A stretch of 64,000 bases of DNA, taken from the NCBI RefSeq assembly GCF_000143415.4, contig NW_003314285.1, forward strand, positions 145,102-209,101, given 5' to 3'. This DNA is from Selaginella moellendorffii (taxonomy: Eukaryota > Plantae > Lycopodiophyta). The notes below the pieces were generated by a model. It saw only the letters and a program-made list of their open reading frames with translations, was not told where the DNA came from and ran no database searches. Made by a program: the position numbers and the translations under genes. Below, piece by piece: positions 3,425 through 33,953 of the stretch. Each line of letters opens with the position of its first letter. Within the stretch, counting starts at the first letter, position 1.

Positions 3425-3794
3425 NNNNNNNNNNNNNNNNNNNNNNNNNNNNNNNNNNNNNNNNNNNNNNNNNNNNNNNNNNNNNNNNNNNNNNNNNNNN
3501 NNNNNNNNNNNNNNNNNNNNNNNNNNNNNNNNNNNNNNNNNNNNNNNNNNNNNNNNNNNNNNNNNNNNNNNNNNNNNNNNNNNNNNNNNNNNNNNNNNNN
3601 NNNNNNNNNNNNNNNNNNNNNNNNNNNNNNNNNNNNNNNNNNNNNNNNNNNNNNNNNNNNNNNNNNNNNNNNNNNNNNNNNNNNNNNNNNNNNNNNNNNN
3701 NNNNNNNNNNNNNNNNNNNNNNNNNNNNNNNNNNNNNNNNNNNNNNNNNNNNNNNNNNNNNNNNNNNNNNNNNNNNNNNNNNNNNNNNNNNNNN
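3425..3794. other. Assembly gap (370 N)
   Basis: Run of N. Confidence 1.
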
Positions 3795-9177: not shown

Positions 9178-9236
9178 CTCCCAGCAATCCGCCTCTATCC
9201 TTCGCTAGAACTGAGGAAAAGGCTCCCATACTAAAT

Positions 9237-10239: not shown

Positions 10240-13200
10240 TTACACTTTAGTTTCGACTAAGTGTTGATCATGTATAGCTAGCCTCTTTAAGGCATACTCG
10301 GAGCTATAGGCTAAATGCATTAGTGAGTTTATTTCATTGAGTTGGATTCGAGTGGTCATTTAGTTTATGTTTGTCCATGAACCTTTATTTTGTACCTGGG
10401 GTATTACGTTCATATTGGTCAAGTATATGACTTGATGGCATGAGTTTAATATTGGGTCTTGTGAAGGCAAGTTGAAATAGTGATTGTTAGTTGCTTGCGA
10501 CTAGTGATTGCTTATAGACTTCGTCAAGGACTATTGACACTTGCTTCACTCGATAAAGATTTAGCAGTGATGGGCTTGCTTTACCGGATGGTGTTGCAAA
10601 AGATCGTGTTGTTAGACTTACATGGTTTTTCTATGTTGGCATATCGATTCTACCTTTTTTGATGTTATTTGGTTGCATTTAGTCCATGGTGTTGGATTTC
10701 ATGGAGTCTTAGAGATGGTGAATCACTTCTTAATGATGTGTTATCTGAAACTGAGTATTATTGGAGGATTAGTCTCGGATACTGATTAAAATATCTTTGA
10801 CATTAGTTAGCATGGTTGCTAAAGAGCTTTGGGTGGTGATTCACTCTTGCTTTCTTCTAGCTTTGTTCTGTTGTTGATGGCATTAAAATGATGTCTTGTC
10901 GTTGACCATATTGATGTTGAGATTTGAGTGAAATGAGATGTCTCTCCATAGAATTGATATTGAGTTTCATTAGTCTCGATGCAAATAGTGTTGATGCTTG
11001 AGCTGTAGCTTTATGTTATTGGCATTTGTGCATTTGCTAGTTAGCAACTATGTTGGTGTTCAAACAAGTTGAATAGCAAGTTTGAGTTAGTTGTGTTTTA
11101 AATGAGATTATTTAGTAGAGGTTGAGCTTTGGCTTTTCCTTGAAAAATGATTTAGTCGTGAACAACACTAACTTTACAAGTGGAAGAGTTAGTGATCGAT
11201 ATTAGAATGTTTGAATCCTTATTGGATTTGAGTTGAAATATATTGATCATTGATGATTTCTTTTGTACTTGTCATGAAGTGAATTATGTTTTGTTGTAGA
11301 TGGATTCATGGAGGGTTGTTTGGTGATCATTTGTTGAGCATAACTTCGATATGTTTAGCGTTTGGATTGATGCAGATATACTCTTCATTAGCTTTGCATT
11401 ATGAAATCTAGCTTATGGATGTATTGAAGGGGATATTATAAGTTGTGTCATGATTTCTTCTTTAACATTGAAGTTAGTTCATGCAAAATTTGTGATCATT
11501 ATTAGACAAGACTTGGTTATAGACTTTTTCTTGAGCTTTTGGTTCCTTAAGTTTTCATGTTTGTGGTCCATTTATTAGAAGTTGTTAGGGAAGGCATTTG
11601 GGCTTATTAGCTTCAATATTAAAGTTAGTGTTTGCATCTGGCAATCCTTGGTGATGATTGACTATCAACTAAGATAGTTGATTATCCTTATCAAAATTTT
11701 GTTTGATTATTGTTGGTCTAGAATGATTTGCCATTCTTCGGGATGGTAGATTCTTTCTTCGACAATGATTATGCATCTCTTTATTGATGGGATGATTAAT
11801 GATTTTTCATAATAGTTAGTTGTTCTCTTTGATGACTTATGGCTTTTTGCAACACCACATATTCTTTATGGTTTGCTCTAGATTGGTCTCTTGGGTTTGA
11901 GATATCGGTAGGATATATTGCTGACACTTGCTTAAACAATTTGAATTCCTTCATATTGTTGACCAGGATTTATTCAGATTAGCCAATGCGATAGTTAGCA
12001 TGAATGAGTGTTTGTTTGCTTTGAAATATTCATTCTATTCTCTTGACTATTGTTACAATTGCTTTGAAAGATTAGGATGTTATTTCCTTCAAGTAATACA
12101 TTCGCGAGCATTTTGTTTACTAGTCAATAATACTTTATGTTCTTTAAGTTATTTTTTGTAAGTTATTTGGCATTCTGTCTGCAATCTTTGATAGTTACAT
12201 TTTATCATTGAGTTTTCTTTATGATACACTTGCTATTGAATTTTGTTGGATAGTGAATCCTATGTTTTCCAATTATGATGATCTTGGTGGTTCCTGTGCT
12301 CTAATACTGGTTTATCGAATGATACCTTACTTGGAATAATTTTGTGTTCTAATCTAAGATTTATTAACTGATAATTAAGACTCTAAGATATCATTGTCTA
12401 TGACTTTTATATTGTCCATCTATTAATCTTTGGGTTTGGGCTAGTATAAGCAAACTAGCTTCCGCACTTCGTGTGCATAATGAAATCTTTAGTCATGGGG
12501 TAGCTATTGTAGACTGGTCATATCACCCGCCTTTCTGTCGATGTTCTTTATTCTGTTCAAAGGGCGTGACCGTGTAAACAACTCTAACTGCCTGTTTACA
12601 GTAGCTATCTAAACCTTACCAATAGGTTTAGTTTCTTTGCTTTAGAGGGTTGAGACCTTTGACTTTTCTCTCACTATGTCCCTGTGGGCAAGGGAGTATC
12701 ACATTTTTGTAAGCTAGGTGACTCCTAGAGCAGCAAGGGTGGCTAACTCTGTTGGTCATTTCCTTGTTGGCAACAGCCGGAAGGTATTTGAGTGGGTAGC
12801 GCATCCGCGTTATACAAAGAGGTTACTTTAACTCATTTAAGTTGGTGCACTTCTCACATAGTGTGCTCCCCGTGAACTTTTTTAAAGTTCTTTCCTTAGT
12901 AGTGGTCTAGAGTCGAGTATGCATCGATGAGGACATCGATCTTCCTTAAGAGGGGAGAGTGTCGCGAATGTGACTTTGGGTATTGAAAGCTACATGTCAG
13001 CCAATCCTTATGGACACTCTTTCCTTACTGCCACGATGGCAAGAGGTTCGTATTGCTAGACCCTTTATCAGCCCCTCTTATTCAAGTGTTAGTAAACTAA
13101 ACTTTGCATCTGTACTTGGCCGGATGAGCATAACGACAGAATTTCTAAGTGTCTATTCAACCAAGCATAATTGGCTTGGCTTTTTAGTTCTTTTTTGCTC

Positions 13201-14984
13201 TGTCTTGCATTGGCTTGACAAGAACCTTTGCGTATTAAAACTAGTACCTCAATATCGTTGGATGATAGCTTACCATGTCTACTAAACACCCTCACTATCA
13301 TGCCCTTTGTGTTAGTTTCATTTCAGTCCCAATACTATTTATGGAAAGTGTCTAGATTTGCTCATTTAGCATATCTATGGAATGTAAGGATTGTTTTGAC
13401 AACAATGGTGTTCATCCCATAAATGAAGAAATAGTGCCAAACTCCCAAGCATGAAGCCAAGGAGCAAAGGAACCACACCATAGAGCAACTCTTGAGCATA
13501 TATCCCAAGGAGCGAAGGGGCAAGGGTACGGAACAACTTGGAACAATTCTAGAGTATCTAACATCCCAATGCTAAGACCAGCACGCAAAATGGAGCCAAA
13601 CAGAGTTTGGCGCTATTTTAACATATCGGTGGCATAACACGAGAACATGGGTACTCCACCAGCTAGTATGGTGTGGAGCTTGGGCTTAGACCCAAGCCAG
13701 ATGCAAAACAAGGATAGGCATGCAAGCGGAAGCTAGATTATGCCTTAAGTTGGTTGGCCATGCCCAACCTACCCACTATCCCTACTATACATTTGAAACC
13801 CCCCACAGCCCCTCCCTTGGAGGAACACACGCTTTGGGCTTTCACCCCAAGCTTCCCTTAGTACTAGGAGTTAATCTCTGGGACAAGCTTGAAACTTACT
13901 AAATATGGAATATCTATAAATTGCAAATTTGGATAGTGGCCCAAGTGTAAGCGTCTAAATTTTCCATTTCAATTTTAATCACTTAACCACACCTTTGATC
14001 ACTTAGAGGAGTCTCACTCACAACCTCCATAAGTCCTATTCCGAACTTGGGGATTTACTAGCCCCAAGAATGGTATCCCTGCCACTCAACCTTTGCACTT
14101 GGCCCAAGTGCTCCACGTGTCCAATCTCATAACCAACACCCCAAGGTACCACTGACATATCAACCCATTATGCTAATGCCATGCCCCTTTACCTTGGTCA
14201 CACTGGTGGTCTAACACCACCTGTATCACCATCCTATCTCTCAAAGACTGGGCCATCCATCCATGAGTGATCATCCCGAATCCACTCCTTAGCATCTTTA
14301 GGATACCTGCAGGCATGGGGAATAGCCTTCCCCAATACCCCTTTTCAGGTCCTCACTAAGAGCCTTTGTATCCATGGCCGTGTTCGCTAACACTACCATT
14401 GGATCAAGGCCCACAGGCCTGATCACTAAGTCCCATGGTCCTCTGGGACTTCCTCCTCCCATGACTATATCCTTGGTCTTGACACTAGAGGGTTTCTCCT
14501 CTTCTTTTTCACAGTCTAGGACTTTGGAACAACATTTTGGAACACCGTAGCCTTATGCGAGCCTCATGCGTACTCTCCCCACCTTCCGCCTTTGGGTGCT
14601 CTACCCATGGGCTTAGAGCGAGGTTCCATTGAGCCATGCCAGGTGTCCAAGTAGGTAGTGCCACCCATACTTGGACTAGGAGTATGGTCCATTCGATCTC
14701 CCGAGGAAACTAGAGCTAGCTCTTGAACATTTTACCAAGCTACCCCGCTTGACGGTCCATATTCACTCTAGCCTTGGACCTCCTACGCGGGAGGCAGCTC
14801 AAAGGATCTCTTCCCTCTGGTGTCAATGGTTATCCCATCACCCAACACTTGGGTACAGCCTTTCTGTGCCAAACTAGCCTTTCCTGGCCAAACTTGCTCC
14901 ACTAGAGTCTTCCCCCTTACTATACTTTTGGAGCTCACCAAACCCCCATAGGAGATGAACACTTTGGGCTTTCACCCTCTCAGA

Positions 14985-15450
14985 CTCAAACTTGGATTCG
15001 GACTCGGACTCAAACTTGAGCTTGGGCTCGGTCTCAGCCTCAGCCTCGGTCTTAGTCTTGGTCTCGGTCTCGATCTCGGTCTCGGTCCCGATCTCAGTCT
15101 CGACTTTGGACTCCATCTCAGACTTCATCTTGGGTCCATCTCGGACTCCATCTTGGGTCCATCTCGGACTCCATCTCGGGTCCTTCTTAGACTCCATCTT
15201 GGATTCCATCTCGGACTCCATCTCAGTCCATCTCGGACTCCATCTCGGACTCCATCTCGGGTCCATCTCAGACTCCATCTCGGATTCCATCTTAGGTCTA
15301 TCTTGGACTCCATCTCAGGTCCATCTCGGACTCCATCTCGAACTCCATCTCGGTCCAACTCGGACTCCATCTCAGACTCCATCTGAGGTTCATCTCGGAC
15401 TCCATCTTGGACTCATCTTTGGTCCCATCTCGGGTCCATCTCGGACTCCA
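14985..15450. repeat. Tandem 6-mer/12-mer array (CTCGGT, CTCGGACTCCAT) inside LTR B1
   Basis: Visible periodicity; produces spurious SDSI/MESE ORFs. Confidence 0.9.
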
Positions 15451-16074
15451 CCATGTGTCATATGTTAGTCCTCTTGTGTCCCTTTTCTAGAGACTCTCTT
15501 ATTGCTCACTTCATGCTCGTTCCTTGAGCACTCTGTTGGGAGTTACATTCCCGCTTTTGACCTTTCAAGTTGGATGTAAGCGACTAAATTTTCCATTCTA
15601 CTTTAGTCACTTAACCACACCTTTGACCACTTGGAGGAGTCTCATTCACAACCTTCTTAAGTCCAATTCAGGACTTGGGACTTGCTAGCCCGAGGATGGC
15701 ATCCATGTCAGTCATCCCTTGCACTTAGTCCAAGTGCTCCATGTGTCTAGTCCCAAGACCGACACCCAAAGGTACCACTGACATATTGGCCCGTTACACT
15801 AAGGCCATGCCCATTCATCTTTGCCGCACTAGTGGTTCAATACCACTTGCATCACAATCCCATCTCTCCAACACTGGGCCATCCGTCCACGAGTGGTCAA
15901 CCCAGATCCACTCCTTAGCATCCTTAGAATGCCTACAGACATGGGGAATAGCCTTCCCCAATATCCCTTTGTCAGTTCCTACCAAGTCCCTTTTCTGTCC
16001 ATGGCCATGTTTGCTGACACCGCCACTAGATCAAGGCCCACAAGCCTGACCACTAAGTCCCATGGTCCTGTGAA

Positions 16075-16096
16075 GCTCTATTTTGTTAAAGTGGGA
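16075..16096 (+). repeat. Left subterminal inverted repeat
   Basis: 22 bp; 21/22 match to the reverse complement of 29129-29150. Confidence 0.92.
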
Positions 16097-16514
16097 ATTG
16101 TCATTATCCCACTTGTAAAATAAGGTTTCCAAACCTTTATATAGTATATAAATATAACAAAATTCAACTGCATTGAGGCACATGCCATTTTATTTTAAAC
16201 AAGGAAATGTCTACTCAATCACTTCTCCTCCCCCTGCCACTGCTTCACCTCTCTCTTCTCCTTGTCATCGTCGTCCAATTTCTTTCCATCCTTTTAATAT
16301 TGGCTCAGTTGCTCCGAGTCTAGGTGGAGCCCAAGTCCCCATTCAATCTTTACTTTCCCCTTATTAATAAAACAACTTCATAGACTTCCAATAACATGCT
16401 GTAACACTTCTAGTATAATGCAAATCCTCTCAAAGAATTGTCTTTTAATATTAATACAATGGCATGGAACCCCATGCCATAATAAGTTACATTTTTAAAT
16501 AAATACATGCCATC

Positions 16515-17375
16515 TCAGACTGTTATTTTTTGCCTCCAACGCCTATACAATAATCTTGGAATTTCATCACTCTCCACACTATCAGGATTTAAACCCAATA
16601 GTAATGCCATCTCTTCTCTAATACATCCACGCTCATGTTCAGTGGTCGAAGAACCCATCCGGTTGAGCAGATTATGGAGATGCAGATAGTGCTTGGCTAG
16701 ACAATATACATGCCATAAATGATGACTGGTGTCTGTTCGATCAAATAGCTTCTGATATACCGTTCCATCTGCCATTTGGTTGATTTCTGCAGCCACCTCC
16801 TGGACTGGCCGATTCTCTATCACCATCGCTCCAAGCCATTTTGCAAGGTCCCCCAGAACATACGGTTTCTTCTCCCTAGTTTCCATACTGCAAGATATGG
16901 GGTGCACTACATATGTGTGCATGTTCGCTGCAGTTTTAATCGGCGAGTCATCGATGATGAGGATTTCACTTGACCTAGCAGTCCGGTTCATCACTACAGC
17001 CTCTGGCTTGACGAAGATGGGCTTGCTACCCCTCACATGGACCATAGTCAAGCAATCCTCCTGCGTTAGGAGAAAGTCAAATGGTAATATTACTCACGTC
17101 TGATCGTGCATCATCTGTAGCAACGTTAATGCATTGTGGCGCATCATGGATGTCCAAACTCCCAATTGCAAATTGAACCCGGCCCTCTATTTTAAGTGTC
17201 GCATGGTCATTATTAGATCCCGCAGTTTCTCCCGTGTGATTAATGTGAATCTGTCTCTTTTGACCAACTTGCGACCGCAGGCTTTGGAGGGTGCAGTGAC
17301 ATTCAAGGACGAGCCACACTCATGGGAGAAAAGGACACCATTCAGATCAAAAACGATACAGTACCTTCGCCGTGA
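16515..17375 (-). pseudogene. FCP1/NIF-like HAD-superfamily phosphatase domain
   Basis: One frame, read through two stops: CIVFDLNGVLF ... LGVWTSMMRHNA ... FLLTQEDC ... KPIFVKP ... ILIIDDSPIK, i.e. HAD motifs I-IV of FCP1-homology proteins. Confidence 0.8.
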
Positions 17376-20300
17376 CTCTGAAATGAAATGCGTCAGCATA
17401 AAAAATGGTACAAGTCAATTTTACCATCTACAATATTAGCAAATGGTGCTCCCGATGGTTGTTGAGAGGGTTTTGGTCGAGGAAACGTGAAGGGCGGAAA
17501 TACTCTCCTCTGCAATGTGGGGTCAATCACATCCGATGGCGTGTGGGCACATGCCATTTCAGCTGTAGACTCTGGTACAACTGGCTCAACAGTGGCATGG
17601 GGTGGTTCCGATGGCGTGTGATCACACGCCATTTCAGCTGGTGCCTCCGTTGGCAAAGTGGACATGACCGAACAGGCAGCAGGGGCAGTGTAGGGAGGTT
17701 CCAACGGCGCGTAGTTAGACGATTGGGCACACGTTGAGTCCGTTGGAAATGAGGATACGACCGGCTCGGCGGCTGGGGCGGCCTCATGCGGGTCCAATGG
17801 CGCCTGGTCACCGTCAGTTGGATACGTGGACAAGATTGACTCAGTGGTATGGGCAGCATCAAGTGGAGCATGGTTAGCTTGCTTGGCGTTGATATGGATA
17901 GTAGCCTCCACCAGCTCTGATGACTCTTGCAGGCAAGTAGAGTCCACTGGCGGATCCATATGCATGTCCAAATATCTCCCTTCGATTGAGATGGTATCCT
18001 CCCTACTGGCTACTAAAAACAAACTCATTAGCACATTGAATCGACTATACTGTATTTACCATCAACTGCTATTGAGGAACTAGGACCGATATCACTTGGG
18101 CGCACTGCTGATTCTGAAGGATTGGACATACGTTTCAACCCTTGCTTGGCACTATCCTTCTTCGACACTAAAGGCTAGAGTTTGTATCTTAATTCAACTG
18201 AATAATCTCTACTTACCATTTGCTCTGCGACCTACATGGACAATGTTAGAAATGGTAAAATGTTAGGAATGGATGTACTATTATTTACCTGATGGTTTGT
18301 CTTGTATGACCTTCCTCCGCTGCTCTTTGGCCACCTCAGGCTGGCCATTGTCGTCATCATCGTCGTCGTCATTATTGTGATCGTCACCATTGTGAGGACC
18401 ATCCAAGTCCTCTTCGTCCTCCTCTTCTTCGTCCTCCTCTTCTTTGTCCTCCTCTTCGTCCTTCTGCTCTTCCTGCTCATTATCTTTCTCTGGCTCCTCA
18501 TCCCCCTCCTACATTTCTTCCATAGGCTGCTCAGGCTGGATGGCTTGTTCTTCCAGGACCATCTTGGGAAAGTCATCTGGCCGAGTCTCCATCTCAAAAT
18601 ACAAGACATCCATAGCCTGTTTTAGTGCGTGACCTAGGACCGTATCCTCACCCGACTGTCTTAACATGGTTCTGCACGTTCTTGCACCCTTCGAAGACGA
18701 CAAGATAAGAAAAACGTGGCCCTGACTTGAAAAGCATCCCTCATCCATTGTACCTCTCCATTGAGATTGGGGAAGGGGAGTCCGCCATAGGAATCTGAGT
18801 CAGGAGGTGGTGACTGGCTGCTTTCACTCAGCCCTTGATCTGCAATGAATGGCATGAGCACACACGCCATAACCGCGAGGCATTACCTATCATCTTTTCG
18901 TTGCCCTTCTTCCTTTTCGAATCAAACGCCTCTAATCCCGACGACTGTCCAACGTGCTTTCGCTTTTTATGACCACTGTCAGTTTGAGCTTGGCTGGTGC
19001 TTGCCTGTTTTGCCTTTGAAGAAGTGTCTCCTGCAAGGAATGGCATGAGACCACACGCCATTGCAAATATAATTTATACCTCCTTTTTTCCTATTGCTTG
19101 TCTGTTTGTCCTTCTTCGACGCAACACCAGTGCGCTTTTCAGTCCTCGTGTCTGAATATTCACAACGATCTATAATCAAAATGGCGTGAGGCCTCACGTG
19201 ACCTTACCTTGTGCAGGTTGTGAGCTCGGACCAACATGGGTATCTTCAACAGTAGCTGTTAACACTGTTTCAGCATCTGGGGGTGGCCACGCTCCTGCAT
19301 ACAGAGCTTGTGAGATAACATTTAAACTTAAAGTGCGTACTCACCAGGTTCGTAGAGAAGATACTGTTTTTCTTTGGCAACTGTAATTATATGCTCCATT
19401 GAAGTCACCTCTTCAATGGAGTTTGTCACCGCAACACACGGGACACCCTTGAGTAGTGCGGCTCGAAAGAATAGTCCACCGCAGTTGTACTCGACAACGC
19501 ATTTGCCCTTGGAGTCAGAAGCAGGTGACCCACCCGCTATTGTGTTGAAGACCTAGCTGAGCATTTCCCATGCTGCACCTGGAGCTTTCTCTGGATTCGA
19601 AAGCTCCATAGCCGTCTTCAGTTCCTCAGGCACGGGTAAATTGACCTCCCTCAGATCAATTCGATCGGCCTTGTCGAACGAAGCTGGGAAGTCACTCCAG
19701 TCCCACTCTGCTACAGGACCAATAACAAGGGTGAGTGTGAAGATGCGGACATTTGTCGGTATCTTCTTCTTAGCCATTATCCCATGGATCTCCCGCATCT
19801 CCTTGCCTTTCAACCGAGCCTTCACCTCGTTCAAGGCCTTCTAAAACTTGTGATAGGATTCAGAGTCGTAGATCATATAGTGGACTAAAGATTCCACCTC
19901 CGCAAGTCCCACCATTAAGTCAATGATGGAGCTGACTTCGTCTGCATGAGTGATCTCCTCGTTTGTGAAGTCCATCACACAAAAGATGTTCTTGACCTGC
20001 TCATCTCCGCGGGAAATGATGCTTCTCCACCTTTGATCCTCATCCGAATTCACGTATACCTGGTAAGGTTCTCGATAGGCCTCTGCTGTGGGGTCGAGTT
20101 GTTTCTGAAGCCGGCGGTCGACATCTCTCTTAATGAAATTTGGATACTGATCCAACTTCTCAGCTTTACTTTTCGTGGCATCCCGCAGTAGATTGATGAA
20201 CTTGGGGGCCCCCTTCACGTACTCGTCGATGTCTTCATTTGACAACTCCAGCTCTTCCATCATCTCTTGCGTAGTGTCGATGCTCACCCTCTCCACGGCC

Positions 20301-20849
20301 ACTTGCTCGAAGATCCAATCCTTCAATAGCGCACGAGCTCTCAGAGTTGTGCACAAGTCCTCGTATGTCACAATATGGCCGGGAGTCATTTTGGTCTTGT
20401 TGAAGACTACCTCACCACGTAGAAGAGCATTAGCCACTGTCAGAAGGTCGTCATCGTCTAGAGACCGCGAGAAACGCAAGGCGTTGAGCTTCAAATCATT
20501 GGGCTTCCGGCCGTCCTCCACACCCATTGAGTTTAGCAACTCCCCGTCATGGTACCTCCTCAGCACATCTACCCATTTGTCAAAAACAACTTTTGTCGTG
20601 AGTAGAATGTTATGGATGCTGAGTGTGTCATTGACCCCCAGTGTTTTCGAGAGAAGACTCGAGAATTCCTGCAATGGAAATGGCGTGAGGCCACATGCTA
20701 TGCCACATGCAACGAGGCTTACCTGCCAGGCGCTAGTTGCTAGTGCACGTCCTTGTCCTGGTTTTTGTGGCTTCTTCAGTTGAACCTAGAGCTTCTGTGT
20801 TTGTGCCAATGTCTCGTGTAGACCCGATTTGTAGCATGTTTCTTGCTTG

Positions 20850-21245
20850 ACATTCTGTGCATGGGAGATGTATATGATAGATCGGAGGGGCGAGTTGCCT
20901 TTTATCAGGCGGACAACTCTTGTCTTGAAGACTTTCTTCAGCTCCTCGCCCACCATAATATCCACAACTATCTCTTGCATCACCAAGCTAGAATGCTGCC
21001 CGGAGATGGCATAGAACCGGATGTTCTGATCGTCCAACACCTTCCTATTGATCAAGTCTGGAAACCTCGTCTTGCCCTTCATTGTTCGGTAGTAGGGGAT
21101 CACGTCTGCGATGTCGGGTGTTACTAGACTTGCCAGCATCTTCTGCTTCAGTTTCTCCACCCACTCATCAGATACTAGCCTGTGGTTGTATTTGCTTTGG
21201 ATGTCGATACGGCTCACGTCGATTGTATATACTTTGTTGGAATAG
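20850..21245 (-). other. ParB/Srx N-terminal-like domain
   Basis: VYTIDVSRIDI..YNHRLVSDEWVEKLKQKM ... FYAISGQHSSLVMQEI follows the ParB-N pattern (I.i..I, R....l..L, y.ii.GxHR). Recognised by eye. Confidence 0.6.
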
Positions 21246-24200
21246 TAACAAGTACTATTATCTGCGACGATTTTTGCTGCCTCTTCTTGCTCTTTCTGCT
21301 CTTTGCGGCTCTTCTTTTTGGTGGGTGTAGTGTTCGAACCCGAGGCAATGGCATCACCAAGTAGCTTCTTTTTTGGAGTAGGAGAGTCGGACGTCAGCTT
21401 GAGCTTGACCACCCTTTTCTGCTTCGGGGTAGTTTCCAGATCGACCCCCTTCCCCTTCGCTTCGCGAACTGGAGGCACTCTCAACGGCTCAATGTTGGAA
21501 TATAGTTTTTGAACATCGCCGTAGGTGAGGTCCGTGGATTCCATGTGATCTTCATAGACCCGCAGCGTCTTTGAAATTGTGGGCCTCTTGGACAACCTCT
21601 CCCTAGCTCCCTCTAGGAATTCCTCATAGCCGCTGCCCCCCTCCGGGAAGCCGCTAGGATGTGCAAGGTGGATCTTGAAGGCGAACGCTGTCTCTACCAC
21701 AAGTGCCAGTCCATATTCTTGCATGGAACTGCATGGAGTGTCTGTCACTTGGATGAGGATCCCCATGCATTCTTTTCTCCCACCATCTGTGTTGTACAGC
21801 CTTAGATCCTCGCCTTCCATCCCAAAGTTCCAACTAGTGAGCTCCTCCCCCTTCTCTGCATCCATATTGACAGTGGCTGGAAGAAGAACGCAATTCCTCG
21901 CCTGTTCAGAAATGCACAACAATTAGAGCTGACAGATGAAAAACTAGCAGCTGGAAATAACGTGAGGCCATACGCTATTCACCACTGCATCAGATGTCTT
22001 GAGGCTGCATCCTAAGATGGCGTGAGGCTACATGCCATCTGTAACCGGACTGCACTCGAGAGCCCAATCGGTGCATGCCAATGTTGCTACTGAATGGCAT
22101 GTGGCCTCATGCCATTTTCTACTTGGCCTAAAAGACTTACCATTTGAAGCCAAATGGAGGCGTGACAATCGAGGCCGGACTCACTGGCGAATGTGCACTG
22201 TGTGTGCAGCGGATCGTAGCAGCAAGGCTACTCTGCCACTTACAGTTGGAGAGTGGTGCTGAAATCTCCCGGGATGCCAAGTGGGCTGCGTGTGGGTGGC
22301 AGAGTGGGCGGCAAAGTTGGCGGTGAAGTTACAAACTGGGTGTGTCTTGAAGTGGACACCGATGCACACGAGCGCGATGCGAGCGCGAGTGTGATGCAAG
22401 CGCGAGTGGACGCCGATGCACACGAGAAACCTGTAGAGAAGGTAGATGAGCGCGAATGTGAGCGTGATCGCGAGTGGGAGCGCGATGCGAGCGCGAGTAC
22501 GAAGCAAAATGCAAAACCTAACCTCACACGTGCGAAATGTCACGACGGTTGGTAATCCCGCAACGTCATCATTCCTCGGACTTGGGCGCCACCATTAATT
22601 TCTGGATCGCCGCGCGCATGCATGCACGTGAAATCCAAAAGAAATCCGCAACGTCATCATTCCTCGGACTGCATGCACGCGAAATCCAAAAGAAAGATCA
22701 TGATTGGGATATCATTTAATACCCTCGCTATATTTATACCATGCATGATTGGATATTCCAAAGCATCTTGTATTTCCAAAAATGCCAGATGTTCAAGTAA
22801 ATAAAGAATGGTATACAATGTCCTTCTTGATGACCCTGCAAAGAAGCATCTCGATCGGACACCACATGAGACCACACAAGCCTTACAATGTTTCAGGGGC
22901 ATTTGCCATAGATCCGACCGTTATTTTGCTCCAAGATTCTACAGTTTGGTGTGCATTGACCTTTCCATTGACACTGCAAAGGGACATCACAATCAGATGC
23001 GGGATCACAAGAAACCAACTTCACTAACTCTGGTTTCACGAAGATCTACGTAAAAAGTTATGAAATGAAAGGACCCTCTCTATTGAAATGTGTTTATGGT
23101 CCTAGGGGCATTGTGATATATCAAAGGATTTTGCATCAAGTTCTGTATTTGCATGTTTATCAAGCTACTGAATTGCTAAACCCTAAACCCTAAACATGTG
23201 GCAAATGCTGCGTGAAGAAAGATGCCCTTTCTGGGCAAATGCTGTAAGAGGCAGATGCCGAGCAGATGTATCTCAGGCTAGCGAAGGGGACAAACGAAAG
23301 CTAGCTATAAACATGACGGGATGCAAATAGATTACTAGGCTAGTCCTACGAAAATCAAAAACCATAATTGAAAACATTGAAAATGCAAAAAGAAAGGTTT
23401 ATAATATTTTTTAATTTTAATCAACCAAAGGAATGTAAGTAGGGCATGTGTTTGTAAGTTTAAAAATGCCTCAACCACTTAAATTCCCAAGTAAATAAAG
23501 CTGTTTCTATTTTTGGTACAGGTAAACTTTATAGCGTGTGGGCTCATGCAATTTTGAACCCAAAAATGCACCAAAAAATGCTCGACTAGCATTATTCTTT
23601 GAATGGCATGTGGCTTTATATTGCCATAAATGGACGTACACACACAGCATAACTATTCCTTTACACGGCGAATAATCTTGGCGCGGATCGCTGACATGGC
23701 ATGGCAAAGTTCGAATCACTGACATGGCACAGCTGGATCAAGGCAAGGACATGATGTGACAAAGTTCAACCTCCGACAGCAAAGTCTAGAAGCTACTCAG
23801 TTTGAAATTTGTCAGAGGAATCATAAGATCTGGTTTGTCAGAGGATTTGATGTGACGTTCAAGCATGTGTTATTTTTGAATTCTCGAACTCATTCCTAGG
23901 TCTATCATTTTTGTGCGCCGTGTTCTTGGTTCCGCTGAGCGCAATGAGCACTGCTTGTGTAAGCGGCGTTGTGAGCTGTGGTTTATGCGTCTACGAGCGG
24001 TTGTGGCATTGCGAGCGCCATTGCGAGCGGCAATTTATGCGAGTGGCAATTTGTGCGAGCGGCGCTACGAGCAGTTGCGGTGTTGCAAGCGGCTCTACGA
24101 GTAGTTGCGGTGTTGCAAGCGGCACTGTCTTTGGTGTGGCTACCGCTTCCTCTTGATATTCGGCACTTGTGCTTCCTGGTATGTTCACCATGGAATGGCT

Positions 24201-24315
24201 TAGGACCACATTTAGAAATGGCATTAGGCCACATGCCATCTTGGGCCCTTGCAATTTCATGGCTAGCGTATTGTCATGTATGTTTTTACTTGCCTGCAGC
24301 TGTGTGTATATCAAG

Positions 24316-24507
24316 ATGGCATGAGGCCTTATGCCATCTTTGGCCCCTGCTAGCCTATTGCCATATTCCTTTTGCCTTGCTGCAACTATATATATTTTTG
24401 TATGGGTGACTAGTCACGCACACAAAAATATATACAGTTGCAGCAAGGTAAAAGGAATATAGCAACAGGCTAGCAGGGGCCAAAGATAGCATGAGGCTTC
24501 ATGCCAT
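24316..24507. repeat. 192-bp near-perfect loopless palindrome upstream of the transposase
   Basis: Two 96-bp arms centred on GTGACT|AGTCAC (24406-24417), with only scattered mismatches. Confidence 0.92.
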
Positions 24508-24695
24508 TAGTGGTACCACTAATGGCATCAGGGCTCATGCCAATTTTGTGAATGCGAAATTTCACGTGGGTGTCAATAGCATGTTTGAATAATGGCATGT
24601 GGCCTCATGCTATTGAGGTTGTTTGGTATGTTATGATTTAGGCCATTCTCCAATCATTTTTTGTATGGTCTTAACTTCTTTTCTGCACTTTCAGA

Positions 24696-27521
24696 ATGGC
24701 CTCCGCAAGTGCGACGCATGTTCCCTCCGTGGATCTTAAGAACCATGCTACATGGATTCAGGCAAAGGTGTTTCTAAACAACCCCGAGGGGGAGGTGGTA
24801 GCTGAGGGCTTAGCCACAGTTGTCGATCCAAGAGATGCGGTTGCTAATCAAGAATTGGGCTGGGATGATATTGGAATTGCGATTTTAGAGGTTGTTGACA
24901 CAGAAGAAAACAGTCTGACTATTGGAAGCATTGTGCGGTGGAAATTGAGGCACTTAGTGTTTGAGAATGTGAAGGATTCACAATCAAACACCACTACAAC
25001 TGATGACAGAACATCTCTTCATGGGAAAAGAAAGTACACCTTCCTAAAGCGCAGCCAAAGGGATCTGAGCAACAAACCGAAAAGGCAGAAAATGGCGATG
25101 GAGGTTCGAATGGTCTCGATAGTTGCTTATTGCAAGAGGAGGTGTTGTCAACATGCTGATTGGGATGCTATTGAAGAGGAGAGAGCAAGATACAAGACAT
25201 TGTCCTGGAAGGCAGCTCGCAATTTTGTGTATGAGGTATTACGGTCATCTGTTGATGCTTCAGAACATCAGGTGGGGGGCATGGTCTTCCAGAGGGGTTT
25301 GGTCTGCATGAAGGCATGGAGAATCATTTATGGAGTCCCTTGAACCACATTCTACAGAATCAAAATTGAGTTCGAGGAACAAAGGGTTCAATAGGCAGTC
25401 CATGGGAACGACGGTACTCACAAAACCAGGGGTCATGTTGTATATGGAGAGGCAATCTTCAAGAGGTTTGTCGAGACATGTAGTGAGCAGCAACCACATA
25501 AAACCCGCCTCTTGGAAGATGGAACTCGAGACACCCAACGAGTTCTCCCTTCCATGTATACCAAGGGGGCCATATTGGAAGATGTGAATCGGGAACTCCA
25601 GAGTAATGGCTACAGGAAGCTGAGACAATCTAGATTTAGTAGATTGTGGAGCAACAGATTCAGGGATGTGAGTATAGGAAAGTACTCCAGCTTTTCAAAG
25701 TGTGACGAGTGCACTGCTATCAAAATGTCTTTGTCGAAGAATTCTTGCATCGCTCAAGAGCGAGAGACGTTGGTTAGAAGGCGGCTCAACCACAACATCG
25801 AGCAGAGAAGCTGCAGGACTGTATATTATCATAACAGGATTCTCTCCATGGAGAGACCTGACTCTTACCTCTGCATCATCCACGACAAAATGGACCAAAA
25901 AAAGACGTGCTTACCTCGACTCAATCCTGCCCCCAAAGCAATCTCTTCATCCATGCAGCTGCCTGTGTCTCTGTTTGGCATAATCACTCATGGGCATGGT
26001 GCCTAGAACTATGGGAACTTCTTTGTACCTCTATGGGGTGGCGGGGGTGCAAACATGATGATTGCGTCCCTAGCAAAACACTTAAGGTCTCTGCAAAGTG
26101 CGCAAACTGAGCTGAACGGCCAACCCTTGCATAAGGCCCTTGTCGATCGAACCCCATACAGGGTTCAGCTGGAGGAGGAGCAAAGGCTTGCAGTATCGCG
26201 TGGGGCCCCATGCCATCCCAGTGAATATGTTGGCCGTCAGATTGTAGGGTTATCACGTGAGGCCTCATGCCATTCCGATGAGGCTGGTCGCCCGGTGAAT
26301 GCACAGCCTCATCCAAACGAAGCAGAATCTCAAGGAAGTTCTTGCGGCCGATGTGGCCTTCCACCCCATCTTCTGCTCCAAACAGAAAATGCTGGCAGTG
26401 AGAACAAAAACATGTACGTCTTCGCATACTTGGCGATGCTTGTTGCCAAAGGCATATTTGAAACGGTTACATTTGGCTTTCTCATGGTTGGGCACACTCA
26501 TGAAGACATCGATGCCATGTTCAGTCACCTGGCAGAGTCCCTCCGACAATCCAATGTCCTCACCCTCCCACAACTCTACGATGAATTCCAAAATTGCATC
26601 AAAGGCACTGTTGAAGCTGCACTTGTGACAGAGGTTCCAGACTTTAAGGGGTTTGTAAGAGGCTACATCAGGGACGGATCCGAAACGCTGATTGGCCACT
26701 CCAAGCCTCTTCAGTTTCATTTCAGCATGCGTGACGGTGCTCCAGTGATGAGGTACAAGATGAGAGAATGGGACACAGTGTGGCTGCCAGTGGACGGCAT
26801 TGAACTCTTCAAGAGAGATCCCATAACTAGGGAACCTATGATTCCTCAGGCTTCCCCACGACCGATACACCCGGATGGACTCAAAGACCAGGAAAGTATA
26901 GTGGCCGGGATTAGACAGCATATTGCCTTCTGGAAGAGGGGGTTGGTGTTTGGTGGAGAATCCTATTTTTAGAGGTGCAAGCCTTTGCTCGAATATTGGG
27001 AGAAGATTATATCTGCTATCCAAAATGGGCCGGTTGTATATGAAGAATTGGAAGAGTCCTTTTGGCCAGAACCCAGAGCACCAGATAGTAGCGGAACAAT
27101 GTCCTCTGGAAATGTAGTGACAGATAACGATGTTGAGGATCACTATTGTGGGCCGAGGAACAAGAAGCCGAATTCAGCATTCAATCCAGTACAGGTCTGC
27201 AAAGGAATGGTCGTGCTTGTCAGACCCAGTAATAAAAAACAAATGATATAGGTGGGGCGCTGCATCACTGATGCAGAGGAGGACGCGGAAACTAACTCCT
27301 TCAATGTAACTGTGGAGTGGTTCAAGCCAAGTTCCGGATATACGAAGGATTGCCTAGAAAAGAGATGGGTGCTGAATCCAAGGGATCCCAGCATGAGCAT
27401 ATCGGTGGATAATGTTGTGCATGGTTGGATGCGGAAGCAGAGTGCCACCATCACCTTGCCAGACCATGCAAGAGATGCAGCAAGAGCATTCATAACCCGG
27501 GTTCAAGGTGAGATTCATTAA
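24696..27521 (+). pseudogene. DDD/E-type transposase (Sola/DUF7869-like), ~940 codons, five in-frame stops
   Basis: ORFs at 24696, 25512, 26055, 26985 and 27252 are all in one frame, with stops at 25341, 25392, 26004, 26970 and 27249. Motifs: FSKCDEC, IIHDKMDQ, LQTENAGSENKN, FLMVGHTHEDIDAMFS. An acceptor TTTCAG sits just upstream of the ATG. The superfamily assignment is tentative. Confidence 0.8.
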
Positions 27522-29128
27522 TATTCCTTTACTAAATTTCTAATGTATTTTATTTCAAGGTGAACAATCCGAATCTGAATCAGAGGAGGCGTGATGGCAT
27601 GTGGCCTTACGCCATTCTTAGGTGAGATGATACAAATAACAAGTATAAATTCTTAGTTGTTCTAGCAAATCTTACTTAAAGTTCAAGGTGAACAAGCCGA
27701 ATATGAATTCATCGGATTGTTATAACAAATTGCGAGGTGATGGCATGAGGCGATACGCCATTTGAGAGTGGTAGCCATTCCTATATGAGGTGAGTGAAAT
27801 ATTTATTAGAAATACCTCATTCAATTGTGCACTTCTAAATCTTGGTCCACTCAGTACTGTTTGCATGTTTTTATTTTAATTCTTTCTCTAAAATGTTATT
27901 TAGCATGTGGCTTCATGCCATTGCTCTCCACAATCATGCATTGAATTTTTCTATCCTTGCATAATACTTCTCCATATATATAGCATGTGCGCACATGTGA
28001 TATGGTTCATTAGGCCTGATATAGTGTGTGAGGTAAAACAAAGATGATGTGACATATGCATTTACCAATCACACGTGTATAAATCTAATAATATGGCGTG
28101 TGGCCCATATTAATGGCACATAAACCCATATTGTGGGCTTACGTGCTTTATGTACCATCATTCCCTTGCAGCGTGTGTGTTGGTTTCCTTTTATAACACA
28201 ACAAACTCCATATTTTAGGGTGAAGAGCGTTCTCATGGCAAGCACAAAATCTGTAAGTGAGGCAGATAAGGAGACGAAGAAGGAGATAGGTGAAGATCTA
28301 GAATATATAAGTCTTCCAAACTCCCCGTACTATACTCCAGGTGATCATTTTTCTGAACAAACAGCAACATTAACAACTATCGAGAACGCCCCAGTAACGT
28401 CAGAGACAACAATCCAAAGCAAAACAACTGACCCGGAGAAGGATGATAGTACCGCTGAGAGTACCAAAAAGGAGGTGTCCACTAGCGCTTAGGCTTATAA
28501 TGGCGTGTGCCCTCATGCCATTTACTTGATCACCAAATACCTTTTTCCCTTTGCACTAGTATATCTTAATACCGGTCTGAGAAATAGAATGGCATGTGCC
28601 CTCAGGCCTTTTACTAAATCACCTTTGAAAGAAATGCAAGCCTCTATGTCGTAAAAAAAAGGTACTAGAGAAATTCCTTAATAATATGAATGTTATTTAG
28701 TTTCATGAAAATACACTAAGGGTCAAATGAGTTAAATGACTTCTCCAGACTAGCAATGCCTCTTGCTACACCTTCACAATTAGATTTGTTAGAAAAAGAT
28801 AACATTGAATAATATCTAAATGTTCTCACCATTAAGTTATATGTCTGGCTAATAGGAATGACGTTCATCTTGGAAAGCTCACCACACGCTCAATGAACAA
28901 ACAAATAGTGTGTGCGCGCATGCCATCGCTCTTCTTTAGCTTCAGATTCGGCTTGTTCACCTTGACAATGAGATTTATTATACAACCAGATGGACTCAGT
29001 CTGGACACAAAGTCACCGCGCTAGTCACCATGCCCCAGATATATCTAGCTCCTGGACAAAAAACATATAATTTCACGTCATTTTCAAATACTTGAAAATT
29101 TGTACCTAGTCCCATTTTACTGAATAAA

Positions 29129-29150
29129 TCCCACTTTAACGAAATAGAGC
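29129..29150 (-). repeat. Right subterminal inverted repeat
   Basis: TCCCACTTTAACGAAATAGAGC. Confidence 0.92.
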
Positions 29151-29656
29151 ATTCTGGGACTTCCTCACCATGTGACTATATCCTTAGTCACTACACTAGA
29201 GGACCGCTCCTCCTCCTTTCCCTCATTTGGGACTCCGGGACAACATTTTGGAATACCGTGGGCCTACGCGAGCCCCGTGGGTACTCTCCCCACCTTTCGC
29301 CTTTAGGTGCTCTAGCCATGGGCTTAGAGCGAGGTTCTGTTGAGCCACGCCTGGTATCTAAGTAGGTAGTGCCACCCACACTTGGACTGGGAGCATCGGC
29401 CAGTCGATCTCCCGGGGGAACTAGAGCCGGCTCTTGAATACTTCACCAAGCTACCCCACTTGTCAGTCCGTATTCACTCTAGTCTTGGACTTCCCAGTGG
29501 TCAGTTCATCACCCAACATTGGGTCTGGCCTTCCTGGGCCAAACTAGCCTTTCCTGGCCAAACTGGCTCCACTGCAGTCCTCCCCCTTACTATACTTTTG
29601 GAGCTCACCAAACCCCCCAGGGTCTGGGAGACGGACGCTTTGGGCTTTCACCCTCT

Positions 29657-29750
29657 CAGACTCAAACTCGGACTCGGACTCGGACTTGGACTCAAACTCG
29701 GACTCAGACTCGGACTCGGGCTCGGGCTTGGGCTAGGTCTCGGCCTTGGC

Positions 29751-29789
<39 letters not shown>

Positions 29790-30168
29790 AGTCTTGGTCT
29801 CGGTCTCGGTCTCGATCCCGGTCTCGGTCTCAACCTCGGACTCCATCTTGGGTCCTTCTCGGACTCCATCTCAGGTCTATCTCAGACTCCATCTCGGGTC
29901 CATCTCGGACTCCATCTCGGACTCCATCTCAGGTCTATCTCAGACTCCATCTCGGTCCATCTCGGACTGCATCTCGGATTCCACCTCAGACTCCATCTCG
30001 GACTCCATCTCAGACTCCACCTCGGACTCCATCTCGGACTCCACCTCGGACTCCATCTCAGACTCCACCTCGGACTCCATCTCGGACTCCACCTCGGACT
30101 CCATCTCGGACTCCGTCTCAGTCCATCTCGGACTCCACTTTGGACTCCAACTCGGGTCCATCTTGGAC
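29657..30168. repeat. Tandem 6-mer/12-mer array in LTR B2
   Basis: (CTCGGT)n followed by (CTCGGACTCCAY)n. Confidence 0.92.
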
Positions 30169-30929
30169 ACTTCCACGTGTCATGTGTTGGTCCTTTTGGG
30201 TCCCTTTTTGGAGCCTCGCTTATTGCTCGCTTCGTGCTTGTTCCTCGAGCACTTTGTTAGGAGTTCCACTCCCGCTCTCGACCTTTCAAGTCGGAGCTTT
30301 TAGTCCAAACGTGTTATGCTCGTTTGGCTTTCGCTTTGGCCACTACCATATGGCGCCCTTCCGGCTCCACTTTGGGGCTTAGGGATTTTGTGTCTCACAT
30401 TGGAGCCTTTTAGTCCAAACGTGTTATGCTTATTTGGCTTTCGCTTCGGCCACTACCACGTGGCACCCTTTCAGCTCCACTTTAGGGCTTAGGGATATGT
30501 GTCTCACAACTGCCCAAGGCTCTGAAACTCGGGTTCCACACCACTGTCCTTTGGATATGTGGCATGTGACACATGGCATATGGAGGGTTTAGGTTCCGCT
30601 TCGTGGTTATCCTATGGTAAATCACCATAGGATAAAGGGTAAAAACCACATATGCTACAACTTGCGAGATGTTAATCAATATGTGGTATGATTTCAGAAG
30701 GTCACCCAACTCAATACTATTCAAACCCAATGACACTTAACCCTAAGTATCCCAAAACCTTTAACCAATTGAAAAAGGGAGTGCACTATTCATAGGCACT
30801 TTCCCTTTATAAACCTTTATAAATTATTTCTCCAATTGTTCTCTTTGGTTGCTTACAATGGTGTGTCTTGGTTAAGGTGATCAAATGGGAACTTATAAGA
30901 GGGTTGCTAGATTAAGCTATGGATAAAGT

Positions 30930-33900
30930 TGTGAAACACAAATCCCTAAGCCCTAAAGTGGATCTGAAAGGGTGCCATATAATAGTAGTCGAAATGGAAG
31001 TCTAACAAGCATAACATGTTTGGACAAAAGGCTTCGACATGGAAAGTCAAGAGTGGGAGTGGAACACCAAACAAAGTGCTCAAGGAATAAGCATGAAGCA
31101 ATCTGTAAATGAGTCTCTAAAAAGGGATACAAGAAAGATTAATATATGGAAGTGTTAGGAACAAGTTTGAGAAGGAGTCTAAGATAGAGTCCGAGATGGA
31201 GTTTAAAAAGGAGTCTGAGATAGAGTTTGAAAAGGAGTCCGAAATGGATCCCAAGATGGGATCTGAGGAGTCCAAGAAGGAGTCTAAGATGGAGTCCAAG
31301 AAGGACTCGAAATGGAGTCCGAGATGGACTTGAGATGGAATCCGAGATGGATCTGAGATGGAGTATGAGATGGACCCGAGATGGAGTCCGAAGTTGAGTC
31401 AGAGATGGACCTAAGATGGAGTACAAGGTCAAGACTGAGACTGAGACCAAGAACAAGACCGAGGCTAAAACCAAGACCAAAACTGATATTGAGACTGAGA
31501 CCAAGATCGAATTTGAGACCAAGTTTGAGACCGAGTCCAAGTTGGAGTTAGAGTTCGAGTCCAAGTCCGAGTCTGAGGGTGAAAGCCCAAAGCATTCATC
31601 TCCTAGAGCCTAGGGGGTTTGGTGAGCTCCAAAAGTATAGTAAGGGGAGGACTCTAGTGAAGCCAGTTTGGCCAAAAAAAGGCTAGTGTGACCAAAAAAG
31701 GTTATACTTATGTGTTGGGTGATAATATAACCATTGAAGAGTCCAAGGTTAAAATGAATATGGACAGACAAACAGGGTAGCTTGGTGAAGTGTTTAAGAG
31801 CCAACTTTAGCTCCCTTGGGAGATGGAATTGTTGATGGTCCCAATCCAAGTGTGGATGGCACTACCTATTTGGATACCTAATATGGCTCATTAGAACCTC
31901 ACTTTAGCCATATAGCTGGGGCACCTAAAGGTGGAAGGTGGGGAGAATACCCACGAGGCTTGTGTAGGGCTACAGTGTTTCAAAACGTCATCCCAAATTC
32001 CCAGACTGTGGAAAGGAAGAAGAGTAGTCCTCTAATGTAGTGACCAAGGATATAATCATATAGTTGTAAGCCATAAATTTTTCCTTTCCAATTTGCCAGC
32101 TTACCTTGTCTATCCGACCAACTCTGCCTTGGCTTGTGCTAAGTTCCCTCGCCAAGGTTCTCGCCTATAGTACCAGCTCCTACTTGGTCCTACTTGGTTT
32201 CAGCTACTCACTGCACGAGCAACGGAGTGTTAGCCATCCATCTACGGATTCCCAAATCTCTCCCAATCCCCCTCCCCGGGTTAGACTGGACTTAAGGTTC
32301 GGCTACACTCCCCGCAGGCACAAGCAGCCAAGCACACCAAGCCTCCAGATTCCTACCACCCCTTGGTACCACAAGACTTGATCATAGGACCCTCTAAATC
32401 CCAAGCCTTGGGTGCAGCACTTGCTTCGGGACGTTGGGGCGAAACACCGTGGCCTAACGGCCCGGTATGGGTACCTCTACCCCCCCCCCACTTCCATCCC
32501 GAAGGAAAAGCCCAAGCCCCTAGGAAGGGCGAGGGCCAATGAGCCACAAAGTACTCAAGTGGGGCACCACTCCACATGAGCCGGGAGCACCGCAGTCGAT
32601 TTCCCTTTCGGGAGTGGGAGCTGCTCTTGAGCACTTCCCTGGGTGGCCCCTCCGGCACCACTCAAGCCCATGCTCACTCCCACCCAAGGCCCCTCAGCCC
32701 CAGTCTCAACCTCAAGTCAGTTTGGAAGCACCACTGGAGAGCTCCTTCAAGATTGGTTCCTGGATCTCACTATCCCTACTATACTTTTGGAACCCCCTGC
32801 AGCCCCCCCCCCCCCCCCCCCCCCCGTGGGAGACGCACGCTTTGGGCTTTCACCCCTTGACCCGTATTAGTATTTGGACTTAGTCTCTGGCTCGATCTCG
32901 GACCCGATTTCGGATCCGACTTCGGATTCGGTCTCGGACTCGATCTCGGACTCGATCTCGGACCCGATCTCGGACTCGATCTCGGACCCGATCTCGGACC
33001 CGACCTCGGACCCGACCTCGGACCCGACCTCGGACCCGATTTCGGATCTCGGACTCCGTCTCGAACTCGGTCTTGAACTCGGACTCGAACTCGGTCCCCG
33101 AGTCGGTCTCGGACTCGATTCCGGACTCTATCTCGAACTCAGTCCTAGAGTCGGTCTTGGACTCGATCTTCGACTTGGTCCCATCCGATGAACTCTTTGT
33201 CATTTTGGTCATGCTTTTGGGGTTCCTTTAGCCTACGACACCTCGGCGAGTTGGTTTCTTACAATAGTGAGGAAGTCCCAGAGGACAGTGGGACTTAATG
33301 GTTAGGCCTTTCAGCCTTGCTATTGAGCACCTCTGCACAGCCTAGTGCCTTGATGCAACACCTCAAGCATTTAGTGCATCTAACAAAAGCTTTAAGCATT
33401 GCAAAAAGAATTGCAATCAGGAAGCTCATCCTCTTCATCACTAGCCTCCTGGCCAGCAAGCACCATGCCGAAGATTAAGGAGCCAATTGTTCCAATACCA
33501 TGACCCAGTGCAGTATTGGTGAGCATGGCCGTGGATGAAGAGGGACTTGGTTGGAACAAAAGAAGGGATATTGGGAAAAGGTGTTCCTTATGTCTCCAGA
33601 CATCTTAAGGGTGCTTGGTCAAGGGATGACCACTCATAAATGGATGGTCCAGTTTTTGAGAAACGGGATTGTGATGTAGGTTGTCTTGGATTACCAATAT
33701 GACAAGGGTGAATGAGAACAGCCTTAGCGTAACAGGCTGATATGTCTGTAGTACCTTTAGGTGTTAGTCATAGGATCAGACACATGGAGCACTTGGACCA
33801 AATGCAAAGGCTAAGTGGCATAGATGCCATGCATAGGGCTAGCATGTCCCCAAGTCCTAAATAAGACTTATAAAGGTTAGGAGTGAAGCTCTTTCAAATA

Positions 33901-33953
33901 GTCAAAGATGTAGTTAAGTGATTGAAGTAGAATGGAAAATTTAGTCACTAACA
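30930..33953. mobile_element. Reverse-orientation solo LTR B3, split by solo LTR C
   Basis: Reverse complement of B1/B2 with TG...CA ends; flanks AAAGT/AAAGC resemble a decayed 5-bp TSD. Confidence 0.78.
32065..33263. mobile_element. Solo LTR of the chromovirus family C with 5-bp TSD ATAGT
   Basis: TGTAAG...CTTACA termini, ATAGT at 32060-32064 and 33264-33268, and homology to 9237-10239. Confidence 0.93.

Follow-up and report, generated by a model that had tools for sequence, protein, structure and literature searches.

A multicopy transposon of Selaginella moellendorffii with dispersed 22-bp palindromes and a predicted ParB-fold accessory gene

A 64,000-nucleotide stretch of the Selaginella moellendorffii genome (RefSeq assembly GCF_000143415.4, contig NW_003314285.1, positions 145,102 to 209,101; the window) contains a DNA transposon that is inserted in a dispersed host repeat. 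The element carries two divergent genes, one for a transposase with a DUF7869 domain and one for an accessory protein with a predicted ParB-type fold, and it is dotted with copies of a 22-bp palindrome (Table 1). In this copy of the element the transposase gene is interrupted by in-frame stops and the accessory gene by stops and one frameshift; other copies have an extra base at 18669. The palindromes are real, non-random and, within the window, specific to the element.

Table 1. Features of the element, in window coordinates; palindromes are named by their start positions.
Feature	Position	Strand	Remarks
DNA transposon, 13,080 bp	16073..29152		located within one copy of a dispersed host repeat
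Probable 4-bp target duplication	TGTG 16069..16072; TCTG 29153-29156		3 of 4 bases match
Left terminal inverted repeat (TIR)	16073..16099	+	core 16075-16099 preceded by AA
Right TIR	29126..29152	-	core 29126-29150 followed by AT
Accessory gene	16515..22140	-	divergent from transposase; ~10 predicted introns; 5' end uncertain
ParB/Srx-fold domain	20837..21238	-	motif ISGQHS; predicted structure
Middle region	19345..20668	-	helical part followed by alpha/beta part; resembles a methyltransferase only by eye
FCP1/NIF-like HAD phosphatase domain	16917..17363	-	last exons; IIDDSP
Transposase gene	24696..27521	+	DUF7869 at ~26355-26768; acidic residues in HDKMD, D-N and HEDID; CxxC
Short reading frame of 122 aa between stops	28124..28492	+	no Pfam match
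Palindromes 16167, 16459	16167..16480		near left end (16167); just past accessory-gene stop (16459)
Palindromes 17536, 17611	17536..17632		coding, Pro/Glu-rich linker; 75 bp apart
Three tiny predicted introns, one palindrome each	18840-18886 (18849), 19031-19079 (19040), 19170-19207 (19181)	-	
54-nt predicted intron with palindrome 20680	20669..20722	-	position appears common to homologs
239-nt predicted intron with palindromes 21957, 22017, 22094	21902..22140	-	
Palindrome 23531 and half-site 23603	23531..23624		intergenic
Probable transposase 5'-untranslated-region (5'-UTR) intron with palindromes 24218, 24316, 24486, 24522, 24592	24179..24694	+	splice sites by eye
Palindromes 26195, 26252	26195..26273		coding, variable transposase insert between HGHG and D-N motif
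Palindromes 27594, 27740, 27900, 27980, 28500, 28589, 28905 and half-site 28093	27594..28926		downstream of transposase

An earlier reading of this DNA from its letters alone (the sequence-only reading) had listed 25 palindromes with the pattern ATGGCRTG-N6-CAYGCCAT and two half-sites, all confined to the element. All 25 copies and the half-sites at 23603 and 28093 are present, and a 26th copy with two mismatches, overlooked at the time, lies at 23531. Some copies are degenerate, as that reading had remarked: the pattern is matched perfectly by eight copies and with at most two mismatches by 21 of the 25, while 16167, 19181 and 27980 carry three mismatches each and 21957 carries four. Scanning the window with up to two mismatches returned 22 matches, every one within 16459-28926 and so inside the element, and none in the 50.9 kb outside it; 100 shuffles gave a mean of 0.04 matches and a maximum of 1. 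A position weight matrix run over the window assigned 16-37 bits to the 26 copies, a circular score because the matrix was built from these same copies, and 7.2 bits to the best site outside the element.

The distance between the two arms is fixed. When one mismatch per arm was allowed, 18 of 19 arm pairs inside the element had a spacer of six nucleotides and the other pair a spacer of 20, with zero pairs at the 19 remaining spacer lengths; the 50.9 kb outside the element held a single arm pair, with a spacer of 5. The claim of a constant six-nucleotide spacer thus stood, but the accompanying claim that its sequence varies freely did not, because the spacer is partly conserved as WGSSCW (symmetrised counts at positions 9-11: W 46/52, G 46/52, G 36/52). 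Since the spacer is itself semi-palindromic, the unit is the full 22-bp palindrome ATGGCRTGWGSSCWCAYGCCAT. At the fixed arm positions we counted 32 departures, 18 of them C>T or G>A. The two halves of the palindrome vary independently of each other: among 286 position pairs, 214 are complementary versus 211.9 after shuffling of the halves (p = 0.36), and the pair 6/17 is complementary in 13 copies with 13.3 expected. This independence favours a protein site on double-stranded DNA over a hairpin, and supports the dimer-type site that the sequence-only reading had proposed.

The positions of the palindromes were compared with a gene model in which GT-AG introns and exon frames are predicted and two boundaries were adjusted by hand for frame; contigs (X20) that cross predicted intron DNA unspliced were not used as RNA. 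On this model 22 of the 26 copies are non-coding. The four coding copies compare with an expected share of 60.5% (p = 2.9e-6), and all four fall in linkers; because the introns are predicted, the avoidance of coding DNA is a prediction as well. Introns, intergenic DNA and coding sequence had all been named as locations, and all three classes do occur, although the strength of this avoidance had been understated. Nine palindromes lie inside the accessory gene, seven of them in five of its ten predicted introns. Overall the sites are scattered along the whole element and not concentrated at its ends.

Some neighbouring copies have flanks in common (24486/24522 share 20 of 30 bases, 28500/28589 and 24316/24486 share 19, 24218/24316 and 17536/17611 share 17), whereas most of the 325 copy pairs agree at only 7-11 of 30 flanking bases and still retain the 22-mer. 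Some copies thus originate by local duplication, with retention of the 22-mer alone. The sites appear to accumulate where they are cheapest, in introns, UTRs and linkers, partly by way of such duplication. A foldback at 24316-24507, with 96-bp arms that are 91% complementary and adjoin without a spacer, has a palindrome copy at each tip.

The ParB-like protein postulated by the sequence-only reading could be traced to the accessory gene by Foldseek and by superposition of a predicted structure. The model, computed from an alignment of eight sequences, has a mean predicted local distance difference test (pLDDT) score of 49.9, mostly 62-87 across the domain with one block at 51. The top Foldseek rows are Noc, PadC, Srx and ParB, with KorB also present, and the best E-value is 1.3e-3. 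Superposition on Myxococcus xanthus ParB (7bnk) aligned 95 residues with a Z-score of 11.3 and a root-mean-square deviation of 1.8. By group, the DNA-clamp proteins ParB, Noc and KorB reach Z 9-11.3, sulfiredoxin and SerK 6.3-7.6 and the first unrelated row 3.4. Pfam scans of the accessory protein returned no match to a ParB family. The first large exon has a few distant relatives; a representative search gave three matches, of which P0040, a repeat protein from yeast with its match outside the domain, was dropped. We found no homologs of the read-through accessory protein among 7993 candidates, and no relatives of the ParB-like domain in the viral contigs scanned. Seven homologous open reading frames (ORFs; ~20-25% identity) break off or lose similarity at the column of intron 20669-20722, so this intron seems older than the palindrome inside it.

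The remainder of the accessory protein is less easily assigned. By eye, the middle region resembles a permuted N4/N6 methyltransferase. This resemblance found no support: no match was found in Pfam, in PDB sequences or by tblastn against phages, a 31-sequence YhdJ-type profile gave -1.1 bits, and the hhalign score of 12.6 fell below those of the reversed sequence (16.9) and of the best shuffles. A strongly diverged methyltransferase domain may nevertheless reside here; the single-sequence model of 19844-20668 has a pLDDT of 34.5. The last exons match PF03031 with 23.7 bits against a cut-off of 21.8 (E 4.2e-5, two stops read as X), which predicts an FCP1/NIF-like phosphatase domain, and a comparison of the NIF exon with phages gave no match. 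The gene model also contains a predicted 15-nt micro-exon (18217-18231) between two introns.

The transposase matches PF25273 (DUF7869) with an E-value of 8.7e-39. At E<=1e-20, 38 of 3769 candidates qualified as homologs, and no relatives were found in the viral contigs scanned. Moss proteins are among the homologs, which, like the plant genes that flank the element, points to a land-plant host. The aspartates are conserved among these 38 (HDK in 36, D-N in 37, both Asp of HEDID in 37), so that DDD-type catalytic roles can be inferred; the second Asp position is Glu in this copy, and most other copies differ at that base. We take DUF7869 to be linked to Sola; we found no paper on this domain in the literature searched. 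The protein is consistent with a DDD transposase of the Sola type, a placement made by published description. The Sola superfamily is described as having a DDD transposase, 4-bp target-site duplications (TSDs), TIRs of 11-1124 bp and a size of 2-9 kb, with some members exceeding 15 kb (PMC10741241; here and below, papers are cited for the portions consulted), and as being rare in plants (PMC12973397). With TIRs of 25-27 bp and a length of 13.1 kb the present element falls inside the outer range. Upstream of 24704 other copies differ (a loose end in X20, a partial contig in X4), and the homolog P0062 is ~80 residues longer at the N-terminus than this copy and P0004; the transposase N-terminus therefore exists in two forms.

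The ends of the element can be read from the host repeat, which breaks at 16072 and resumes at 29153: 13946-14445 matches 15575-16072, and 14442-15574 matches 29153-30295, an uninterrupted copy being present at 13946-15574. The TIR cores of 25 bp are identical at 23 positions. Deleting the element together with one 4-mer reproduces the unoccupied target as it stands at ~14437-14449, and we regard a 4-bp target duplication with one change as probable, on the basis of a single insertion with both flanks; a 2-bp duplication may be an alternative reading. Contigs of public runs part from the window at 16073, 16075, 29152-29153 and 29154; the family is therefore multicopy, and the ends given here are accurate to a few bases. 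Joints that skip the whole element were considered as products of excision and read instead as other copies of the host repeat.

Comparison with other runs across 26100-29200 revealed 28 majority differences, 24 of which are A>G or T>C relative to this copy, so that the changes in this copy itself are G>A and C>T, a pattern that would be expected from methylcytosine deamination. Two transposase stops are among the 28; this copy is decayed. None of the differences falls within the nine palindromes of the interval, and the imperfect sites are therefore features of the family. Because only 1.8 differences were expected in these nine sites, the zero is no evidence of extra conservation.

Other copies vary in structure as well. 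Contigs from X5, X9 and X13 skip 27586-28012 and 27604-28547 with joints at or near palindromes, suggestive of internal deletion variants. A contig of lower depth (X3, X13) has 44 nt of the right end (29109-29152) with four differences, followed by a palindrome copy, and probably represents a related subfamily or a non-autonomous derivative with a common end and word. Loose ends at 22207-22244 in X4, X20 and X2 suggest extra sequence in other copies near the 5' end of the accessory gene. The region between the divergent genes contains short tandem repeats rich in GC, together with a duplicated stretch (22376-22491, 22565-22700, 24022-24123).

ParB, Noc and KorB clamp or spread along DNA, ParB and Noc from parS and NBS sites, respectively. 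By analogy, we favour, with a probability of roughly 0.6, an account in which a dimer of the accessory protein binds the palindromes and through them locates the copies of the family to which it belongs. Its ParB-type domain would load as a dimer on the 26 sites, and the element would thereby recognise and regulate its own copies. The protein might then clamp or spread along the element like its bacterial counterparts and deliver the NIF-like and middle domains to it, so that the element would stay expressed or be marked as self, in the way that VANC serves VANDAL. We infer the ParB-fold protein as the binder for several reasons: 22 sites occur where 0.04 are expected, at fixed spacing and with none outside the element; the arms do not covary, coding DNA is avoided and the sites range along the entire length of the element; copies of the family have the imperfect sites in common; the predicted fold is closest to the DNA-clamp proteins; and ParB-like genes have been reported in Plavaka and Sola1 elements. 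In a further-reaching version, which we consider possible but tentative, a land plant would harbour a bacterial-style site-and-clamp system, with the ParB-fold/FCP1-like protein loading on the family-specific palindromes in introns and UTRs and spreading to shield or activate the element against silencing and each family having its own pair of palindrome and protein.

Several observations weigh against the ParB-fold protein as binder. Chief among them, no ParB-like gene was found in any of 80 metagenome loci with related transposases, most of which are short or decayed, with a profile of eight sequences. The accessory-gene model itself is predicted, the best Foldseek E-value just misses 0.001 and the mean pLDDT of the model is only 49.9. 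The consensus of the ParB nucleotide motif is GxxR, but the corresponding position reads SGQHS in all eight aligned homologs, so CTP clamping may not apply. We identified no helix-turn-helix (HTH) motif after the ParB domain, where the protein is predicted helical (pLDDT 34.5) and the homolog search gave no match. With no HTH identified and SGQHS in place of GxxR, the element at most works like a ParB site system, and we do not class it as one. FCP1/NIF phosphatases share the catalytic motif DxDx(T/V), and the NIF-like domain of this copy has Asn at the second catalytic Asp (DLNGV). The conserved arginine of the ParB nucleotide motif is named in PMC12704722.

The main alternative, though an unlikely one, is that the transposase, or its N-terminal domains, binds the palindromes for end synapsis or to activate its own copies, the ParB-fold gene being cargo. 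The metagenome loci bear on this directly. Of the 80, five under 2 kb were skipped, and many of the others are copies of a few families. A palindrome detector requiring at least three copies fired in 25 of 75 loci versus 3 of 75 shuffled ones, and counted 3, 8 (a satellite) and 4 in the flanks of the window; since it fires in these flanks too, only larger counts with distinct flanks were used. Seven loci have their own, unrelated palindromes of ~20 bp beside or inside DUF7869 genes (L001, 9 copies; L018, 10; L017, 6; L028, 8; L043, 5; L044, 13 in tandem; L007, 4). A Pfam scan of 80 of the 179 non-transposase ORFs in the related loci returned no ParB, methylase or NIF match. Palindromes thus occur where no ParB-like gene is detected, and the transposase remains a rival binder, although the loci concerned are mostly contig fragments. 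It is also in keeping with this alternative that five palindromes lie directly upstream of the transposase start, that the related X3/X13 contig has the same word ~50 nt inside a similar end, and that a Mutator transposase is reported to activate cognate copies (10.64898/2026.08.24.746577). The distribution of the sites speaks against this alternative, however: only 2 of 26 lie within 300 bp of an element end, the TIR lacks the word, and nine sites are inside the accessory gene.

The related loci yielded further observations. Family-specific palindromes of DUF7869 elements occur at L017:557-4494, L018:50-2937 and L001:640-2552, and two of those in L017 lie in frame inside the transposase, translated as VGCPPT. 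An ORF with an endonuclease VII domain is located ~1.8 kb from a DUF7869-type transposase (L059:9342-10574). In 12 long related loci a TIR search found no convincing ends.

A role at the RNA level, in which the word would provide very short introns with a branch point or form a hairpin in transcripts, is improbable. Four predicted introns of 38-54 nt are each about half filled by one palindrome, with copies 18849, 19040 and 19181 ending 9-11 nt before the 3' ends of their introns; the CTCAY of the palindrome, which resembles the branch-point consensus, then falls 16-18 nt from the 3' end in all four, the position of a branch point. But 15 of the 26 copies lie outside the introns and linkers of the accessory gene and the word is missing from 5 of that gene's 10 predicted introns, while a hairpin should leave the compensatory covariation that is missing here and a branch point needs no 22-bp symmetry. 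We give slightly less credence still to recruitment of a host dimeric transcription or chromatin factor: the sites are symmetric, non-coding and clustered near both 5' ends, yet the 50.9 kb of flanking host DNA contain none, 22 bp is long for such a site, and related families have unrelated words. Least probable is an introner-like origin, with the copies as inert remnants of a very small mobile unit or of internal duplication: some neighbours do have similar flanks (17-20 of 30 bases), but most pairs do not although they retain the 22-mer, no target duplications were seen by eye around the copies, and intron 20669-20722 appears to predate the word.

Among published systems, a close parallel to the proposed accessory-protein binder is Sola1-1_Ec32 of the brown alga Ectocarpus, also a large TIR transposon in which a ParB-like gene and the transposase occupy opposite strands; its TSD is 4 bp long, the length that is probable here, and binding and modification of the element by its ParB-like protein have been proposed (PMC12477816). 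It differs in length (21.5 kb versus 13.1 kb) and in TIRs (282 bp versus ~27 bp here), an N4/N6 methyltransferase is recognisable in its accessory protein whereas here none was detected and a NIF domain is predicted, and the consulted portions of that paper mention no palindromes. PAG3 of red-algal Plavaka (EnSpm) elements is likewise a ParB-like accessory gene, adjoining inverted repeats, with self-binding again proposed and not shown (10.1101/2025.02.11.637652). Plavaka belongs to another transposase superfamily, its repeats form tandem arrays beside the gene in contrast to the 26 dispersed copies here, and the partner of PAG3 is a 2-oxoglutarate (2OG) oxygenase instead of NIF (same source). 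These two papers are the only parallels that we found in the literature searched, which was mostly open-access and gave no land-plant case with dispersed palindromes; Iyer et al. 2011 may describe land-plant ParB-methylase transposon genes. By analogy, the element would be a land-plant variant of this recently proposed algal design.

The VANC/VANDAL system of Arabidopsis resembles the element in another respect: its element-specific motifs lie in introns, intergenic and terminal DNA, have spread by local repeats and differ between families (PMC5735166). Those motifs are 8-9 nt long and not palindromic, and belong to Mutator-like elements for which binding and demethylation have been shown (PMC5735166). 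VANDAL combines a Mutator-like transposase with a long TSD, whereas a DUF7869 transposase and a TSD of ~4 bp are found here. Bacterial ParB/parS, Noc/NBS and KorB resemble the element in having numerous dispersed palindromic sites and in the fold predicted for its accessory protein (Z up to 11.3). They differ from it in that here no ParA was seen, an HTH was not identified and SGQHS replaces GxxR, and in that its 22-bp sites occupy eukaryotic introns. Fusions of a ParB fold with a methyltransferase are common in phages according to PMC12704722, the consulted portions of which mention neither plants nor transposons, and ParB-HTH methylase fusions appear in Iyer et al. 2016 (PMC4738411), where the portions consulted do not mention Selaginella.

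Recognition of an element's own DNA by an accessory protein is known from few transposons. VANDAL has been named as the only shown case (10.1101/2025.02.11.637652), and the two algal papers, both of 2025, propose a second, ParB-like route. The present element offers a defined 22-bp site in 26 copies. Its family in the plant is multicopy, with a majority sequence that departs from this copy at two transposase stops, and the idea of self-binding is therefore directly testable. If true, a sequence- and family-specific DNA-targeting module of bacterial origin would join plant chromatin biology.

The DNA around the element is repetitive in part. The dispersed host repeat of ~1.6 kb has an internal 12-bp tandem array (GGACTCCATCTC-like) and is present in six or more copies, in both orientations, in the stretches 9236-10242, 13946-16072, 29153-30511 and 30927-36232. 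Its CpG and CHG ratios are 0.42-0.54, versus 0.65 and 0.87 in the element. A run of 370 N occupies 3425-3794. Plant genes are located in 42072-44288, 48354-50547, 53404-54024 and 60508-63894, among them two PPR genes and genes for a phosphoglycerate dehydrogenase (PGDH), a MyTH4-domain protein and a TAXi aspartic protease.

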